DNA of 38,847 nucleotides from Candidatus Levybacteria bacterium GW2011_GWA1_37_16 (GCA_943354875.1 CALRDJ010000003.1:1-38847); one strand, 5' to 3'; shown: positions 26,758-38,789, numbered from the stretch's first letter. Numbers and translations: made by a program. Notes: generated by a model not told the origin, from the sequence alone.

Positions 26758-27116
26758 TGTCATCCTGAACTTGTTTCAGGATCTCCCTTTCGTCATTGCG
26801 ATCCCGATCTAATCGGGAGAAGCAATCTCATTGTCATTCTGGAGTCCGCCGAAGGCGAGACGATAGAATCTCTTTCTCTCCTCGTTACTTTTTCCGAGGA
26901 AAAGTAACACAAAAACTCTTTTGCACTAAGCCTCCACCTAAAAATACTCCGTTCTCTTATCGGGGGATTGTCCTCCCCCTTCAGCAGTTCGCTGGATTCT
27001 CCCTGATAGCTCACTCCATATTTTTTTAACGGTGACTTCTTAAAGCAAAAGAAAGGGAGACCGCATATAGTTCTGCTATAGACACTGGGAGATCCTGAAA
27101 CAAGTTCAGGATGACA
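26758..27116. mobile_element. MITE/REP-like composite element with perfect 30-bp terminal inverted repeats
   Basis: TGTCATCCTGAACTTGTTTCAGGATCTCCC at 26758-26787 and its exact reverse complement at 27087-27116; further GTCAT...ATCTC palindromes at 26791-26829 and 26832-26872. Confidence 0.7.
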
Positions 27117-27157: not shown

Positions 27158-27505
27158 TTATGGGGTTCCTTGGGATAAGTCTACTCCAAACAATCCTCCT
27201 ATGAATTGGACGATAAAGAGCGCGAGAAGACCGATTATAAGTCCGATGATGCTGTAGGTGAGGCGATTGCGTGCTGTCTGGAGTGCTTGTTTATCTCCGC
27301 CTGATATAGTCCACTGAATACCACTGTAGATAAGAGAGAAAAGCGCTGCGATGATGACCACGATTATAAATACGGTAATACCGCGCTGGATGATGGCTTG
27401 GCCGGCTCCGCCAGCTTCAAGCCCGCCGGTGGGGATTCCTGTGGGAGCCTGAATGACTACAGGTGTTCCATTCGAACCCGGAATTGATAATGATAGTAAT
27501 CTCAT
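27158..27505 (-). CDS. VirB2/TrbC-like T4SS pilin
   Basis: GIQWTISGGDKQALQTARNRLTYSIIGL between two TM helices. Confidence 0.8.
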   Translation of the reverse strand: MRLLSLSIPGSNGTPVVIQAPTGIPTGGLEAGGAGQAIIQRGITVFIIVVIIAALFSLIYSGIQWTISGGDKQALQTARNRLTYSIIGLIIGLLALFIVQFIGGLFGVDLSQGTP

Positions 27506-27510
27506 CGTTT

Positions 27511-27537
27511 GAATTATGAATAAAGAATTATGAATTA
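27511..27537. repeat. 7-nt repeat array (GAATTAT type), 3' flank of four-helix-bundle gene 1
   Basis: GAATTAT GAATAAA GAATTAT GAATTA; overlaps the stop codon. Confidence 0.75.
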
Positions 27538-27923
27538 CGTGATTTAGAGCTTCGTATAAGTCCGTTTGTTATTTTATGAACAATTATCGCTTGTTCTGCA
27601 AGTTTATCATAGTTTTCTTCTGAAATGAAGCCAACGTCCCTGGCAACTAATAGTTGATTTTGAAGTTCAGTAATTGACCCGAGAGATATTGAATAAAACT
27701 GTGTTTTTTCTTTGTAAGATTGTCTGCTAAAGCCTTCCGCAATATTCGAGGTTATGGATATGGCGCATCTTCTCATCTGGCTAACTAGGCCGAAAAGCTC
27801 TTCTTTGGGAAATGTTCCCGTAGTCGAATAAACCATCAAGACTAATTTATGTCCTTCTTTCCAAGCATTCAAATCATGGAATGTCCTAATCCTGCTTTCC
27901 GTAATTCTTAATTCATGCGTCAT
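27528..27923 (-). CDS. four helix bundle protein (23S rRNA intervening-sequence protein family)
   Basis: FHDLNAW, FPKEELFGLVSQMRR, SITSNIAEG, GSITELQNQL. ATG 27923 avoids overlap with the upstream gene. Confidence 0.9.
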   Translation of the reverse strand: MTHELRITESRIRTFHDLNAWKEGHKLVLMVYSTTGTFPKEELFGLVSQMRRCAISITSNIAEGFSRQSYKEKTQFYSISLGSITELQNQLLVARDVGFISEENYDKLAEQAIIVHKITNGLIRSSKSRNS

Positions 27924-27930
27924 AATTCTT
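27886..27930. repeat. inverted 7-nt repeat array (TAATTC type), 5' flank of four-helix-bundle gene 1
   Basis: GTAATTC TTAATTC ATGCGTC ATAATTC at 27901-27928 plus weaker upstream units; complementary to 27511-27537. Confidence 0.65.
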
Positions 27931-27936
27931 GCGAGA

Positions 27937-29292
27937 TCACTTTCCAAATCCCGGGATTTTTAGGATGTCTACTCCTACTACTTGGAGGATGACGAGGGCA
28001 AAGATCATAAACAGAAGTCCGATGACAGCAGAGGTGAGTGTCTCTCGTGCTGCTTTTAGTTTTTCAGGGTCTCCCTGAGAGGTCATAAATCGATAGCCAG
28101 TAGCGATAATTATGAGAAGGAGTATTCCCCCTGCTAGGCTTAGGATGATGGAGAAGATTTTTTTTACAAAATCAGCGGGATTTGTATCGATATCGCCTAT
28201 GGCCGTATTTACCTTCTTGCATTGATAGGTTTTTCCTCCCCATATATCTTTTCCTTCAACCAGGCTATTTTCTGCGCAAGGAAGCTTCATGGTTTGAGGT
28301 CTGGCTGGATCTGGGAGCTTGAAGTCTCCGGCGTTGGCTCTGGAGCATTGAGCTGTTCCTGGCGCAGGGGGTCCGGGGGTAAAGTTTAAGAGGATGCCAT
28401 TTGTATCGCAGTGGGTGGTGGCTATAGAGAGCCCTGAAACTTTATTAAGGCCTAAGGTAAATACAGTGAGGACTACATTTGCTACATCTCCTACATATGT
28501 AGGTCCGTTGCTGAGGACTGTACTCATCTTTTCTATGCAGAACTTTTTACTGCCTACCTCATCTGTCGAGTTTGCAGGGATGGGAAATTCATCGAATATC
28601 GTCTGATTTTTTTTAGTAGTAAATGCTGGTTGGGCAAAGACACCTCCTTCCCACCACCACCAGTAAGTGGTTTCGGGAGATAGATTAGTGATTCGTGAAA
28701 CTTGAGCTACTGTTCCTGCTTGGAAGGTGCATGCATTTTGGGTTACGACGTCTATTTTCGGTAGCGTGGCTTGTGATGCAGTGGGTTTTTTTTTACCAAC
28801 TTGTATGGTAGTTTCGCCAAGAAAGTATTTTTTATCAGTACATTTGCGTATATCAGTAGTCTTACATATGGCTATGGTCCATGGTTGATCTGGGAATTCA
28901 TCTCCAGTAACAAATGATCGTATTCCCGTAAGTCTTTCATGCAACGGCCCTATTAAGCTAATGTCAGTGGTTAATTTGGTAGCAGAAGATGGGGTAACCC
29001 AATGATGGTCAGGTTGACGCGTGACTAATATTCCGCCGCCTTCTTTAAAAAAATTTTCAGGAAACCCTCCAATCTTTGGGTAGGCAAGGACATAATAAGA
29101 TCCTGCAAACGAGCAGTCAGGGTCGCCAGAAATGGTAATACTCATGGTTCCGCTAAAGGTTGCTGGTAGTGGATCGTTGCCAAATAAAGTGTCTGTTGTG
29201 AGAGTGCAGGCGGCATGTGCTGTCGAAGGAGTGCTCAGGAATGTGGAGATTACGAAAAATAACGATAGTACGACAGGCAGAAATCTTCTCAC
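27937..29292 (-). CDS. large exported Cys-containing domain fused to a C-terminal VirB2/TrbC-like pilin
   Basis: Signal peptide (VRRFLPVVLSLFF...TAHA) from GTG 29292; C-terminal VNTAIGDI...GYRFMTSQGDPEKLKAARETLTSAVIGL. Confidence 0.75.
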   Translation of the reverse strand: MRRFLPVVLSLFFVISTFLSTPSTAHAACTLTTDTLFGNDPLPATFSGTMSITISGDPDCSFAGSYYVLAYPKIGGFPENFFKEGGGILVTRQPDHHWVTPSSATKLTTDISLIGPLHERLTGIRSFVTGDEFPDQPWTIAICKTTDIRKCTDKKYFLGETTIQVGKKKPTASQATLPKIDVVTQNACTFQAGTVAQVSRITNLSPETTYWWWWEGGVFAQPAFTTKKNQTIFDEFPIPANSTDEVGSKKFCIEKMSTVLSNGPTYVGDVANVVLTVFTLGLNKVSGLSIATTHCDTNGILLNFTPGPPAPGTAQCSRANAGDFKLPDPARPQTMKLPCAENSLVEGKDIWGGKTYQCKKVNTAIGDIDTNPADFVKKIFSIILSLAGGILLLIIIATGYRFMTSQGDPEKLKAARETLTSAVIGLLFMIFALVILQVVGVDILKIPGFGK

Positions 29293-29338
29293 CTCTTCAT
29301 CGTAGCGCAAAAACAGCAGGAATTGCAAGCAACGTAAC

Positions 29339-29436
29339 TAGACGGTAGAAGGTGGAGAGTTGAAGATAAAGCTTTGACGGTAGAAAATAGATGGTAGAAG
29401 ATAGAATTTTGAAGATTGAAGATGGAGCATAGAATG
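29339..29436 (+). repeat. 14 x 7-nt degenerate tandem repeat (TAGAAGA-like)
   Basis: TAGACGG TAGAAGG TGGAGAG TTGAAGA TAAAGCT TTGACGG TAGAAAA TAGATGG TAGAAGA TAGAATT TTGAAGA TTGAAGA TGGAGCA TAGAATG. Confidence 0.85.
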
Positions 29437-29450
29437 AATACAATGAGATT

Positions 29451-29813
29451 GTGATCAGAAGTTTTAAAGACTTAGAAGTTTACCAAGAGTCATATGAACT
29501 TGCTATTTTGGTTAACCGAGAAGTTAACAAATTGCCACTTTTTGAACGAAATGACCTAGGATCGCAACTTCGGAGAGCATCAAAATCCGCGCCTTCAAAT
29601 ATTGCAGAAGGCTGGGCTAAAAGAAGGTTTGAAAAGCAATTTAAGCTACATTTGGATTCAAGCATAGGCTCATGCAATGAAATGGAAGTTCATATAAGCA
29701 TGGCGAGAGATTTAAGTTTTTGGAAAAAAGATTTTTGTGAAAGTCTACTTCAACGATACTTACTGCTTGGTGGGAAAATAACCAACTTAAGAAATAATTG
29801 GAAAACGTTCTAA
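29451..29813 (+). CDS. four helix bundle protein (23S rRNA intervening-sequence protein family)
   Basis: IRSFKDLEVYQ, LPLFERNDLGSQLRRASKSAPSNIAEG, GSCNE. Confidence 0.9.
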   Translation: MIRSFKDLEVYQESYELAILVNREVNKLPLFERNDLGSQLRRASKSAPSNIAEGWAKRRFEKQFKLHLDSSIGSCNEMEVHISMARDLSFWKKDFCESLLQRYLLLGGKITNLRNNWKTF

Positions 29814-29883
29814 TCTACCTTCTACGTTCTATCTTCAAGTATCTATTCTCCATTTTCTATTATCTACCGTCTACGGTCTATTG
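29814..29883 (-). repeat. 10 x 7-nt degenerate tandem repeat, inverted relative to 29339-29436
   Basis: On + strand: TCTACCT TCTACGT TCTATCT TCAAGTA TCTATTC TCCATTT TCTATTA TCTACCG TCTACGG TCTATTG, starting immediately after the stop codon. Confidence 0.85.
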
Positions 29884-29918
29884 ATATTGTCAGTTTTTTG
29901 TATCGTTTTCGTGTTCTT

Positions 29919-29983
29919 GTCAGAGATTCGTGTCTATTAGTGTGGTTTGTCGTCAAGCGTGTTTACGCTTCTTCGTGTATCTT
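29919..29983 (+). promoter_or_regulatory. GTCAG...GTCAAG-N20-TATCTT promoter, copy 3 (middle box degenerate)
   Basis: GTCAG 29919, GTCAAG 29952 (33-nt offset as in copies 1 and 2), TATCTT 29978-29983, ATG 29991. Confidence 0.5.
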
Positions 29984-29990
29984 TGTGTTC

Positions 29991-32942
29991 ATGGGAGAGC
30001 AAGTTATAAGACCAGAATCGTTGACAAGTCAGCCTCATCCCGCATATGCTAGAGGTGGAGATATTTCTATGCCCATAGACAACACTGGAGACACACGAAG
30101 ACCTCCTCGTCCGAGAACACAGGAAGAAGTTATAGCCGCGATGCCTCGCAGAGAGGGTTATGAGGTAGCAGAAGAAATGGAGAGGGCAGAGCGTGAAAGA
30201 GGTGAGCGGGTAGCTCGAGAGGCCTCTCGAGCAGGGCCTCAGCAAAGACCGCGACTTGCGGAAAACATGCGGCCGATATCTGGGGGAGCGAATGGAGTAC
30301 ATATCCAAGCAGATGACATCCAGGATCCCAGGATCAGAAGAGAGTTAGAGCGATTAAATAATTTCATGGATGTAAACGATGGTGTTCATGATACGACGCT
30401 TCTTCAGGAAGCAGACAAGCACATAGGGCGTTTAGAGGGGGTAAATCCTGCAGATCGATCAAATGCATTGAATCGAATTCGTGCGGAGCAGGTTGCAGCG
30501 CGCCAGCACATGGAGCAGGAAGCATTAAGACATAAACCTCAGCGTAACAGGCGGGAAGAAGAGTCAGATGATCTAGATTTTCATCCAACTGATTTTTATG
30601 GAGCAACGAAGCTCTCAAAGAATGAGATAGAGAATATTCCAAAGTGGATAGAACAGATGATTAAAACTGTTCGTGATCGTTCAGAAGCTCATGGTGGAGA
30701 CCACGGTCTTCACGCAGTGAGTGGTGACCTAGAGCACAATGATCTAGACCAGCTGTTTAACCGCATGTTTAGGAGGGTAGATAATTCTCCCCGTGAATCA
30801 TTTGAGCATGCATTTGGACAAGTCGGTAGTCAGGAGGAAACAGAATTTTTTACTCAGATCCAGCAATATCGCTTTCAGCTCCAGAAGGAGCATAAGCATG
30901 AAGAGTCGGGCGTGGTCGAGCAGATAATCCACAAATATGAAGTAGAGAAGAGTGCGCGTAGCACACTCCATAATGCTTACTATATCGCTGATTCAGGACG
31001 AGAGATGAAAGACTTCGTCGGATTTATCGCGACGTTCGCCTCTGAATATGCAGATGCGGCATTTCAAAACGCTCCTGAAGTAGAAGCAGCAGTGCGTGTG
31101 CGTGAGCAGGTCTTATTTCAGATAAAGCGGGAAAATAATGGATTTATTCCTCACTCGGTCATCGCCTTTAATCCGAAAATTTATGGATCAGAATTTGATC
31201 ATCGTGCTAAAGCTATGATGCGTACGATGAATGGTAAGAAGCTTTTCGGGGATATACTCGGAGAGTGGAAGATAGATCGGGCCTTGGAGCTTTCTCGAGG
31301 ACTTGGTATGGTCACCTGGCGGTATTTGGAGATCGTAGCAGAGTGTCCACTCCCTGATATTAATGGATCGAATAAGGCTCAGCAAAGTATTCCATGGGAG
31401 CTCATCACGTGGGACATGAATCCGATGGATCATAAAGTAAAGAGGTATCGTATCGGTCGACAGATGCAGTCAATTCTGATCGCAGGAGGAACGCGTACAA
31501 AACAAGGCATGTGGGATAAAAATGAATTGTCAGGCGCATTAGAGCAGTACGAGATAAGCAAGAATATCGATGAGAGTTCCGGGTTCGTAAGCGGTATGGA
31601 CCGGAATAACTTATTTAAAATCGGCGGACCCTTTACGCACACGGGATGGCGTACATTCGTAGCTGCGATGGATGAGAATATGGAGGGACTGGAGCCGATG
31701 CTTGAAAACGATCCGGGAGTAGCGATAAAACTGTTATTCAATAGATATCATGACCACGATCAGGTAAAAGAGCGTGACGCATTTTTAAAAAGTCCAGGTG
31801 TCGCAGGATTATCGACTGCAGAGACAAAACGGCTGTGGGATGAGGAGAAAGAGCGAACAAAGGACGCTGCAAACGAACGGTGGAGTGATGACGATGCGAA
31901 TGCTTTTAAATCGACCACTGCGCGTATTCCACACGTGATGCTTCGTCTCATCACAGACCCTGGATATAAGCTTTTAGATCCAGAAGAGAGGACGAAGTTG
32001 ATGAGAGATATTTTTGGAGATCGCGTGAATCAACCTGGTTTTCAGGAGTACTACTCAAATGTAGAAACACAGCTAACGATCGCAAAGGAAGGACTCCTCA
32101 AAAGGAGAAGGGAATATATAGCTGAGAAAGAACGACGAGAAAAGGCACATGAAAGCCTAGAGGGCTTAGTGTTTAAAAACAGATTAGTGGATGATCCGGA
32201 TGATCCGGATGATGATTTTAAGCTTATTACTGATGATGGTCTGCGAGACCAGGCGATAACGCTTCATCGGGTGATGACTGACCGTATGGATAACGATGAT
32301 ACGTTAGTGGAGAAGATTATAGAAAAGCATAAAGCGCGTGGATTTATGTTCGCGATTACTGCTGAGGATATTCCTTGGGGAGAATTTGCCTATCGAAAAA
32401 CTGGAGGTCGAGGATTTTTCACTCGAAAAGCAAATGATAACATGGCAGACAAGGGTGCGACCGATGAGCTCATGAATATCCTGAAGAATATTAAGCAGTT
32501 TAAGAAGCCAGAGCAAATATATGAGTCTATCTATAAGATGTTCATGGCTGCTGAGACACATGATCTTGATCGGGCACAGGATGCGGTGATATTCGTTCTA
32601 AAAGGTATTATCCGGGTATATCAAAAAGATGGAATACTGAAGATACCTATCTTAGGAGATTTAGAGAGCGCTCGAAGACAAGCGACTGGTCAGTACGAAG
32701 GAGACTCTCTCGCTCAGGATTTCTATGGGCGAAGTATTGCTCCGGCGTGGGATGACGATGCTATTTATAATCTTATATCGATGTTCCAGCCTATTCTCGA
32801 AAAAGATCAAATAGAGGCGCTTCGAAAAGAAGTCGGGGCGACTTTAGGGAAAGCGTTGTGGGCTAAGTCAAAATTAGCAATATACTTAGGTCTTATAACG
32901 TTTATGCTGGAGTTTTTTAACAAATTAACGAAGACGAAATAA
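29991..32942 (+). CDS. large helical hypothetical protein with C-terminal membrane anchor and RPISGGA motif
   Basis: Start moved from 29898 to ATG 29991; highly charged; single hydrophobic tail LAIYLGLITFMLEFF followed by basic residues. Confidence 0.85.
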   Translation: MGEQVIRPESLTSQPHPAYARGGDISMPIDNTGDTRRPPRPRTQEEVIAAMPRREGYEVAEEMERAERERGERVAREASRAGPQQRPRLAENMRPISGGANGVHIQADDIQDPRIRRELERLNNFMDVNDGVHDTTLLQEADKHIGRLEGVNPADRSNALNRIRAEQVAARQHMEQEALRHKPQRNRREEESDDLDFHPTDFYGATKLSKNEIENIPKWIEQMIKTVRDRSEAHGGDHGLHAVSGDLEHNDLDQLFNRMFRRVDNSPRESFEHAFGQVGSQEETEFFTQIQQYRFQLQKEHKHEESGVVEQIIHKYEVEKSARSTLHNAYYIADSGREMKDFVGFIATFASEYADAAFQNAPEVEAAVRVREQVLFQIKRENNGFIPHSVIAFNPKIYGSEFDHRAKAMMRTMNGKKLFGDILGEWKIDRALELSRGLGMVTWRYLEIVAECPLPDINGSNKAQQSIPWELITWDMNPMDHKVKRYRIGRQMQSILIAGGTRTKQGMWDKNELSGALEQYEISKNIDESSGFVSGMDRNNLFKIGGPFTHTGWRTFVAAMDENMEGLEPMLENDPGVAIKLLFNRYHDHDQVKERDAFLKSPGVAGLSTAETKRLWDEEKERTKDAANERWSDDDANAFKSTTARIPHVMLRLITDPGYKLLDPEERTKLMRDIFGDRVNQPGFQEYYSNVETQLTIAKEGLLKRRREYIAEKERREKAHESLEGLVFKNRLVDDPDDPDDDFKLITDDGLRDQAITLHRVMTDRMDNDDTLVEKIIEKHKARGFMFAITAEDIPWGEFAYRKTGGRGFFTRKANDNMADKGATDELMNILKNIKQFKKPEQIYESIYKMFMAAETHDLDRAQDAVIFVLKGIIRVYQKDGILKIPILGDLESARRQATGQYEGDSLAQDFYGRSIAPAWDDDAIYNLISMFQPILEKDQIEALRKEVGATLGKALWAKSKLAIYLGLITFMLEFFNKLTKTK

Positions 32943-34803: not shown

Positions 34804-34870
34804 ATGAATTATGAAGTAGGGATCACGAATCATGGAAAACCATAATTCATAATTCTTTATTCATGATTCC
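34804..34870. repeat. gene-less inverted pair of 7-nt arrays
   Basis: ATGAATT ATGAAGT AGGGATC ACGAATC ATGG, loop, CA TAATTCA TAATTCT TTATTCA TGATTCC; 34843-34869 is a 26/27 match to the reverse complement of 27511-27537. Confidence 0.75.
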
Positions 34871-38702: not shown

Positions 38703-38789
38703 CGGAGAGGGGGAGATTCGAACTCCCGATACCCTTGCGAGCATACCTGCTTTCCAAGCAAGCGCACTAGGCCACTATGCGACCTCTCC
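38703..38789 (-). tRNA. tRNA-Ser(GGA)
   Basis: Acceptor GGAGAGG/CCTCTCC, anticodon arm CTTGC-TTGGAAA-GCAGG, long variable arm, GGGAG-TTCGAAT-CTCCC T arm; CCA not encoded. Confidence 0.96.

Follow-up and report, generated by a model that had tools for sequence, protein, structure and literature searches.

In the genome of Candidatus Levybacteria bacterium GW2011_GWA1_37_16, a gene of the family PF05635 situated between two pilin genes probably belongs to an intervening-sequence-type gene cassette outside rRNA, in which two inverted arrays of 7-nt units border the gene precisely and would form a stem in read-through RNA. ORF-bearing intervening sequences of the same protein family in rRNA are already known; the element described here is best classified as a PF05635 cassette that resembles them but lies outside rRNA, has a defined architecture of heptamer arrays, and is turned over at the DNA level. 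The bracketing of the gene by mirrored heptamers is real, highly non-random, general, and pan-bacterial. ORF and arms constitute one evolutionary unit, each protein lineage possessing its own heptamer and the arms staying complementary while both change. Insertion and loss of this unit take place within the short spacer that separates a stop codon from the next start codon, and the unit decays to ORF-less hairpins.

Organization of the cassette between the pilin genes

The stretch of DNA analyzed, hereafter called the window, comprises 38,847 nt (GenBank CALRDJ010000003.1:1-38847, assembly GCA_943354875.1). It stems from a genome of 1.05 Mb in 69 contigs with a GC content of 40%, referred to as G000 in the following. 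Two cassettes and one ORF-less hairpin are found in the window (Table 1).

Table 1. Coordinates of the cassettes, their neighbors, and an ORF-less hairpin in the window
Feature	Position	Strand	Remarks
Small T4SS pilin (PF18895), downstream neighbor of cassette 1	27158-27505	-	115 aa
3' arm, cassette 1	27511-27539	-	GAATTAT units on + strand; spans TAA stop
PF05635 / TIGR02436 four-helix-bundle gene, cassette 1	27528-27923	-	131 aa; ATG at 27923; TAA stop 27528-27530
5' arm, cassette 1	27900-27928	-	TAATTC-type units on + strand, GAATTAT/GAATTAA on coding strand
Large T4SS-pilin-domain protein (PF18895), upstream neighbor of cassette 1	27937-29328	-	463 aa; stop ~8 nt before 5' arm
5' heptamer array, cassette 2	29339-29434	+	TAGAAGA / TAGACGG type
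Second PF05635 gene, cassette 2	29451-29813	+	120 aa; GTG start; 29% identical to cassette 1 protein
3' heptamer array, cassette 2	29814-29881	+	TCTACCT type; begins directly after stop
ORF-less hairpin, cassette 1 heptamer type	34805-34870	.	on - strand ends just before gene start

The arms of cassette 1 are 29 nt long, 83% complementary, and 360 nt apart, and each of them consists of about four 7-nt units; for positions 27510-27537, Tandem Repeats Finder (TRF) reports a period of 7 with 4.0 copies. The 5' arm includes the ATG (27921-27923) and the first eight codons of the gene (MTHELRIT), and a direct-repeat pair with a spacing of 14 is situated at 27906-27933. The 3' arm stops 5 nt short of the ATG (27505) of the downstream pilin gene, beyond which two further pilin genes follow. 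A reading made from the sequence alone had claimed that GAATTAT-type units cover the stop codon and complementary TAATTC-type units encode the N-terminus, that the cassette lies co-directionally between two pilin genes and ends a few nt before the next ATG, and that its heptamer differs from that of cassette 2. All three statements were confirmed: the arms are located as given in Table 1, both neighbors belong to PF18895 with a gap of 5 nt to the downstream one, and the heptamers are of the GAATTAT type in cassette 1 and of the types TAGAAGA and TCTACCT in cassette 2.

Concerning the folding of cassette 1, its flanks reach a duplex energy of -55.9 kcal/mol, compared with a mean of -27.4 and a best value of -34.9 among 20 shuffles. 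Folded as a whole, the cassette obtains a z-score of -2.41 (1 of 100 shuffles equally good), and both arms are paired in the minimum-free-energy structure. In cassette 2, the arms are 60 nt long and 70% complementary, and the fold has a z-score of -4.51 (0 of 100 shuffles as good). There is no rRNA at cassette 1; the Rfam scan of the window yielded one match, a tRNA gene at 38703-38789 on the minus strand.

The encoded protein

The only ORF inside cassette 1 is the PF05635 gene, and no transposase gene is contained in the cassette. In profile searches, the protein matches four-helix-bundle families only: PF05635 (23S_rRNA_IVP) with an E-value of 1.2e-35 and 122.4 bits (cut-off 33.8), and TIGR02436 ('four helix bundle protein') with 116.1 bits (cut-off 24). 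The proteins of cassette 2 and of a third copy in G000 also score above the curated cut-offs of PF05635 and TIGR02436. Over residues 9-124, the cassette 1 protein is homologous to the PDB entry 2gsc_A (XCC0516; phmmer E-value 1.7e-21), and it is thus, as judged from sequence similarity, related to a solved pentameric four-helix-bundle protein. Searched with the PADLOC anti-phage models, all three PF05635 proteins of G000 matched 0 families.

Further copies and ORF-less arrays in the genome

G000 possesses three PF05635 genes, all of them with inverted arms and each with a heptamer of its own. The third copy, situated on contig C29 (locus L003), is flanked by arrays of the CAGTTTT/AACCGAA type. 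The mutual identity of the three proteins amounts to only 27-29%. In L003 (positions 1385-1415), and also in the downstream flank of locus L032, a short G+C-rich hairpin of the CGCTTTGGCGAAGCG type interrupts the heptamer array and thus represents another small element inside the arm. Regarding cassette 2, a 35-nt piece of its 3' array (29827-29861) is surrounded by other sequence in three metagenome runs (X2, X3, X4).

Tandem repeats with a period of 7 are the commonest ones in G000 (128 of 585 TRF rows), and a period of 14 is found in 34 of the 585 rows. Many of the arrays are adjacent inverted pairs and form ORF-less hairpins (e.g., C62:4177-4258, C6:6661-6736, C10:7847-7922, and C28:7455-7530). 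In the ORF-less hairpin of the window, the right arm shares 26 of 27 consecutive bases with the 3' arm of cassette 1, the irregular CTTTATT unit being among them; folded alone, the hairpin has an energy of -23.1 kcal/mol and a z-score of -2.48. When the orphan arrays of G000 were compared with 36 cassette units of relatives, 20 of 82 were identical to one of these units. Shuffling of the units gave 9.8 on average and at most 17 in 200 trials, such that the excess is modest; within 1 mismatch, 68 orphan arrays corresponded to such a unit vs. 61 for shuffled units.

At C18:13815-14106 of G000, inverted arrays of the AATTTCT type, 244 nt apart, surround a frame of 72 aa, and this stretch may be an internally deleted cassette. 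The enclosed part (C18:13870-14085) was considered as a truncated remnant of PF05635; with an E-value of only 1.3, it was not counted.

Generality of the arrangement

Of 101 genomes of the same order, 74 contain PF05635, among them G000, and a single genome has up to 19 matches. A match was also obtained in Bacteroides thetaiotaomicron, which served as a control. The flanks of the gene were studied at 33 loci from the genomes of the order, at 80 loci retrieved by scanning GTDB species genomes, and at 43 loci from IMG/VR. The GTDB set comprises many CPR groups, Elusimicrobia, Anaerolineae, Nitrospirae, Planctomycetes, a Chroococcidiopsis, Flavobacteriaceae, and MAGs labelled Gammaproteobacteria. 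Enough clean flank for analysis was available at 105 of the 113 cellular loci, and 193 windows of the same geometry, 700 nt to either side, served as controls for the inverted repeats.

A flanking inverted repeat exceeds the 95th percentile of these controls at 101 of the 105 loci and their maximum at 97 loci, such that the arrays are not absent around homologous genes, in agreement with the sequence-only reading. The median arm has 33 aligned columns and is 83% complementary; the 5' arm ends at a median position of +2 relative to the ATG, and the median start of the 3' arm is at -4 when counted from the end of the stop codon. Seven is the best period in 85 of the 105 5' arms and in 88 of the 105 3' arms, compared with 14 of 198 control windows. 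It is the best period in both arms at 76 loci, and a period of 8 is found in both arms at 4 loci. At 59 of the 105 loci, the 5' unit and the reverse-complemented 3' unit differ by at most 1 mismatch, whereas the same applies to 580 of 10920 pairs of arms from mismatched loci. The arms thus vary widely among loci and yet are complementary within each of them, which is covariation on a large scale. Of the 42 analyzable IMG/VR loci, 37 lie above the same threshold, and 28 exhibit a period of 7 in both arms. The purine fraction of the 5' arm has a mean of 0.64; it is above 0.6 at 62 of 101 loci and below 0.4 at a single one.

Units of 8 nt are found in both arms of the cellular loci L099, L106, L111, and L113 and of the viral loci L235, L264, and L265, and the 5' array of L090 contains 8-mers mixed with 7-mers. 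Telomere-like G-rich heptamers (GGGATTA, TTAGGGA, GGGTTTA, GGGAGTT, GGGACTT) occur among the arrays of L088, L012, L004, L011, L109, and L112; G-rich heptamers of this kind were studied as quadruplex-forming in Xanthomonas and Nostoc, according to the accessible part of PMC4692102.

Parallel change of heptamer and protein

Over many loci, heptamer and protein were found to co-vary, as had been anticipated from the sequence alone: the distance between heptamers is correlated with the identity of the proteins (Spearman -0.27), and none of 500 permutations was as extreme. Among protein pairs with more than 70% identity, all 13 of 13 share the heptamer within 1 mismatch; the share is 36% at 60-70% identity and 2-4% below 40%.

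The suggestion that each paralogue goes with its own heptamer holds for the three G000 copies, all of which differ, and equally for two genomes with many copies. In G009, 10 of 19 copies were compared; their identity has a maximum of 54% and a median of 33%, and the heptamer differs at at least 2 of 7 positions in 44 of 45 pairs. In G061, with 7 of 11 copies compared and a maximum identity of 59%, this is the case for 18 of 21 pairs. Paralogue-specific heptamers would equally be expected from joint inheritance alone. The copies found together in a genome separated long ago and have diverged strongly, and they thus show no sign of recent transposition bursts. Among the matches listed for the genomes of the order, only 7 PF05635 genes contain in-frame stops, which indicates that the protein is generally kept intact.

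Gain and loss at gene junctions

According to neighbor statistics that rest on crude ORF calling, the upstream neighbor is co-directional at 87 of 101 loci and the downstream neighbor at 76 of 99 loci, and the cassette is antisense to both neighbors at 3 of the 95 loci at which both were called. The median gap amounts to 4 nt between the upstream stop and the 5' arm (n=87) and to 6 nt between the 3' arm and the downstream start (n=76).

The junction at the 3' end of thyA was compared among 86 genomes of the order, 10 of which possess a full cassette, 7 an ORF-less period-7 array, and 69 neither. The ORF-less arrays are those of G002, G054, G074, G092, G094, G097, and G050, the last of which appears by eye only as an A/T-rich stretch. 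At empty junctions, G000 included, the thyA stop often abuts or overlaps the next start. In G033, G074, G083, and G006, the thyA stop lies within the first array units, and in G080, G068, and G002, the ATG of the gene following the thyA cassette or array (NUDIX-like or FolA-like) lies within the 3' array. The arrays hence supply the stop and the last residues of ThyA, or the start and the first residues of the downstream protein, such that turnover of the cassette rewrites the ends of neighboring proteins. Within a single genus (g66), the cassette is found in G080 and G068 and an ORF-less hairpin with a different heptamer in G092, and the junction of G091 is empty. The hairpin of G074 could be aligned to both ends of the G033 cassette (29/32 and 42/59 positions), an ORF of ~350 nt being skipped. 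The cassette proteins at the thyA junction are 58-75% identical, and these cassettes may derive from one ancient insertion with many losses instead of repeated insertions.

At the large-pilin junction, a cassette is found in G000, G041, G049, and G062, ORF-less arrays are found in G013, G054, G018, and G057, and the junction is empty in G007, G012, G017, G043, and G033. With 4 cassettes, 4 ORF-less arrays, and 5 empty junctions in 13 genomes, the cassette is not fixed at the pilin position; constant fixation there would have refuted the sequence-only reading. The four cassettes represent three unrelated lineages: the proteins of G041 and G049 share 72% identity and are 20-21% identical to that of G000, and those of G000 and G062 share 41%; the median over all pairs is 42%. 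From the presence of unrelated lineages it follows that this junction was occupied more than once.

With full cassette, ORF-less hairpin, or nothing at two orthologous junctions, gene and arms together behave as a unit that is gained and lost in DNA. This turnover, the ORF-less hairpins left by it, and the pan-bacterial distribution had escaped the sequence-only reading. Like transposable elements and MITEs, the cassette possesses terminal inverted repeats and is present or absent at orthologous sites. When empty and filled thyA junctions were compared by eye, no target-site duplication was recognized, the boundaries being blurred by the arrays. In four metagenome runs, no contig skipping either cassette of the window was found, which is a weak test, as contigs drop rare variants.

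Possible pairing of the arms in RNA

By analogy with the rRNA intervening sequences, it is plausible that the arms pair in RNA. In a read-through transcript, they would form a stem of 29-60 bp, the base of which would bring the upstream stop and the downstream start to within ~10 nt of each other; the same spacing is found at empty large-pilin junctions (4-9 nt in G007, G012, and G017). Such a stem would be a likely substrate of RNase III, as in the ORF-bearing 23S rRNA intervening sequences, and a gene for this enzyme is encoded in G000. Pairing of the stem would render the insertion nearly harmless to the operon. As 7 is not divisible by 3, each codon contained in the unit would appear in all three frames within 21 nt, and an inserted array could terminate the upstream gene and restart the downstream gene whatever their frame, in agreement with the loci at which arrays provide the stop of the upstream gene and the start of the downstream one. 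Of 101 5' arms, 48 contain stops in all three frames, compared with 27% expected from composition; this enrichment is likely a by-product of the periodicity.

The sequence-only reading had proposed that the arms pair in mRNA and loop out the ORF, as 23S rRNA intervening sequences do, and that this could affect translation of the downstream pilin. This interpretation is supported in part. On the one hand, the architecture matches that of the ORF-bearing ones, of which that of Coxiella has heptamers and is cut by RNase III; on the other hand, an excess of G-U on the sense strand, which would be a signature of pairing in RNA, was not found among the arm mismatches of the cellular loci (153 G-U vs. 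199 A-C). Likewise, the duplex energies of sense and antisense strand do not differ (p 0.12).

Consensus scans for promoters and terminators between positions 27300 and 30000 of the window remained at chance level, with 5 found vs. 5.4 expected. A promoter-like spacer noticed by eye in the viral locus L247 was considered as an internal promoter; it was not flagged by the consensus scan and was dropped. SD-like motifs precede the ATG at only 19 of 101 loci, and a ribosome-binding site therefore does not account for the purine richness of the 5' arm.

Comparison with known systems

In the ORF-bearing 23S rRNA intervening sequences of Coxiella, Leptospira, and Brucella (S23p), a member of the same family is situated in the loop of a stem of terminal repeats, as in cassette 1. 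For the Coxiella sequence, PMC4990558 describes 3-4 tandem heptamers (GACAGAT) directly upstream of the S23p ATG, a terminal stem of 28 bp, and in vitro cleavage by RNase III at the first of the repeats. Insertions with 23S_rRNA_IVP ORFs are also described for CPR 16S and 23S rRNA (accessible part of PMC11270868), and 23S_rRNA_IVP genes wedged within cas operons are mentioned in that of PMC3936711. Among the sources accessible to the literature search, heptamers beside an S23p ORF appear only in the Coxiella work (PMC4990558), and no paper was found that treats heptamer arrays as a general property of PF05635; subscription journals or supplements could hold such a link. The term 'TIGR02436' was not found in this search. 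Despite the general similarity, cassette 1 differs from the 23S intervening sequences in its location: it lies between protein-coding genes and not in an rRNA helix, and its arms abut the stop and the start of the neighbors. It thus has the terminal inverted repeats enclosing an ORF that characterize intervening sequences, but not their location in rRNA.

REPtrons consist of RAYT (TnpA-REP) genes flanked by inverted REPs, RAYT being an HUH tyrosine transposase and REPs being single palindromes of 20-40 nt. They share with the cassettes the small gene between inverted hairpin-forming repeats, the many gene-less intergenic copies, and the lineage-specific repeat, whereas the cassette protein is a four-helix bundle without a known catalytic site instead of an HUH Y1 transposase, and its repeats are tandem 7-mers. 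Correia and ERIC are miniature inverted-repeat elements that are processed in mRNA and have inverted repeats of unique sequence and defined target duplications. They resemble the present elements in that they are hairpins devoid of an ORF, lie in intergenic spacers that are transcribed, and are polymorphic in presence/absence, but unlike the cassettes, they possess neither tandem heptamers nor a cognate four-helix gene.

The Avd proteins of diversity-generating retroelements (DGR) belong to a homologous helical-bundle family, with weak hits: cassette 1 remains below the cut-offs of both Avd models (PF22296, 22.6 vs. 40; NF033474, 22.3 vs. 80). The only RT-like frame in G000 (C4:6640-7104, within an open frame of 517 aa, E-value 1.6e-11) is located on a contig other than those of the three PF05635 genes. 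An assignment of cassette 1 as DGR Avd was rejected, as the profile scores are sub-threshold and a reverse transcriptase is not adjacent.

The STRR of cyanobacteria are orphan intergenic heptamer repeats. Repeats of this kind resemble the cassette arrays as intergenic tandem 7-mers which, according to PMC4679880 and PMC4692102, often end 1 nt before a start codon and are lacking at the same junction in related genomes; they differ in that the cassette arrays are tied to a gene family. TAACTGA repeats are described for Beggiatoaceae, cyanobacteria, and Bacteroidetes in the accessible part of PMC4679880, and GGGAATC repeats with 70-75 convergent (inverted) pairs in Xanthomonas, as well as GGGGA(C/T)T repeats in Nostoc, in that of PMC4692102. 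S23p, intervening sequences, and four-helix proteins have 0 occurrences in PMC4679880 and PMC4692102.

Alternative explanations

It is unlikely that the arms function in DNA only, i.e., as the inverted repeats terminating a small mobile element, with hairpins or cruciforms at its ends, that is moved by the four-helix-bundle protein or by a host function, with RNA pairing being incidental. Such an element would fit the presence/absence pattern and the ORF-less derivatives at orthologous junctions, the missing G-U excess on the sense strand with equally good sense and antisense folds, and the purine-first palindrome (mean 5' arm purine fraction 0.64), which holds on both strands. However, neither target duplications nor near-identical copies within a genome are seen, PF05635 lacks a known catalytic motif and its solved homologue is a plain helical bundle as far as the accessible sources describe them, and RNase III cleaves the Coxiella intervening sequence, which has this layout as well, in vitro (PMC4990558). 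Quite improbable appears a binding register, in which an oligomeric four-helix-bundle protein would bind its own heptamers, one protomer per unit, in RNA or DNA, for autoregulation or for protection of the stem, such that each paralogue would recognize its own cassette only. The co-divergence of heptamer type and protein and the fact that copies of the same genome almost never share a heptamer agree with it, but joint inheritance alone would also yield such co-divergence, and many ORF-less arrays of G000 have heptamers without a cognate gene in this genome. Avd is a nucleic-acid-binding partner of a retroelement, and the relation of the family to Avd by weak profile hits points in the same direction as a binding register.

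The recurrence of PF05635 cassettes in or near the pilin clusters of relatives (G062, G023, G042, G084, G041, and G049), together with the position of cassette 1 between co-directional pilin genes, could suggest that the cassette has been domesticated to regulate the pilin operon, its stem setting the ratio or the coupling of large and small pilin, with the ORF being secondary. This is very improbable: the same architecture is found at unrelated junctions (thyA-folA and many others), the junction is empty in 5 of 13 genomes, whose orthologous operons work without a cassette, and the filled pilin junctions hold unrelated cassette lineages. Chance low-complexity sequence or ordinary terminator hairpins might come to mind in an A+T-rich genome (GC 40%) in which 7 is the commonest tandem period (128 of 585 TRF rows), yet their probability is negligible, as the comparisons of arm score, period, and covariation refute this reading. 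The controls never reach the scores of 97 of the 105 loci; moreover, the arms are A/T-rich and lack a G+C stem followed by a T run, and the terminator scan (27300-30000) flags neither arm. A far wider interpretation, possible but rather doubtful, would regard PF05635 genes with inverted arrays as a pan-bacterial class of self-contained mobile cassettes, the oligomer reading its own 7-nt register and mediating insertion and excision at stop-start junctions and hairpin loops, with rRNA helices as one target; the orphan heptamers (STRR, TAACTGA, GGGAATC, and the ~80 arrays in G000) would then be ORF-less, non-autonomous remains.

Implications and a neighboring palindromic element

TIGR02436/PF05635 is among the commonest unexplained small protein families of bacteria, with up to 19 copies per 1-Mb genome searched, and intergenic tandem heptamers have repeatedly been described without an explanation; the tie between them gives both a testable context. 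The intervening-sequence-type cassette favored here is a candidate for an element without a recognized transposase that is inserted exactly between the genes of an operon, its arms possibly hiding it from the host transcript. Regarding the gene as part of a cassette would also explain the first discovery of the family inside rRNA stems. For annotation, it has to be considered that arrays can supply the ends of neighboring genes.

A further inverted pair is situated between two pilin genes at 26758-27116 of the window, where two copies of a motif of ~28 nt (GTCATCCTGAACTTGTTTCAGGATCTCC type) surround an insert of ~305 nt; Rfam gave no match in this region. In four lake metagenomes, the two motif copies reach 8-40 times the depth of the neighboring sequence, and dozens of metagenome contigs join position 26784 to 27090 with only 3-9 letters between them. 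Together, these contigs and the high depth of the motif point to a widespread short palindromic element, the loop of which is filled in the window. Motifs similar to the GTCATCCTGAACTTGTTTCAGGATCTCC type are also found in the vicinity of cassettes in L102 and downstream of thyA in G032, G041, and G051.
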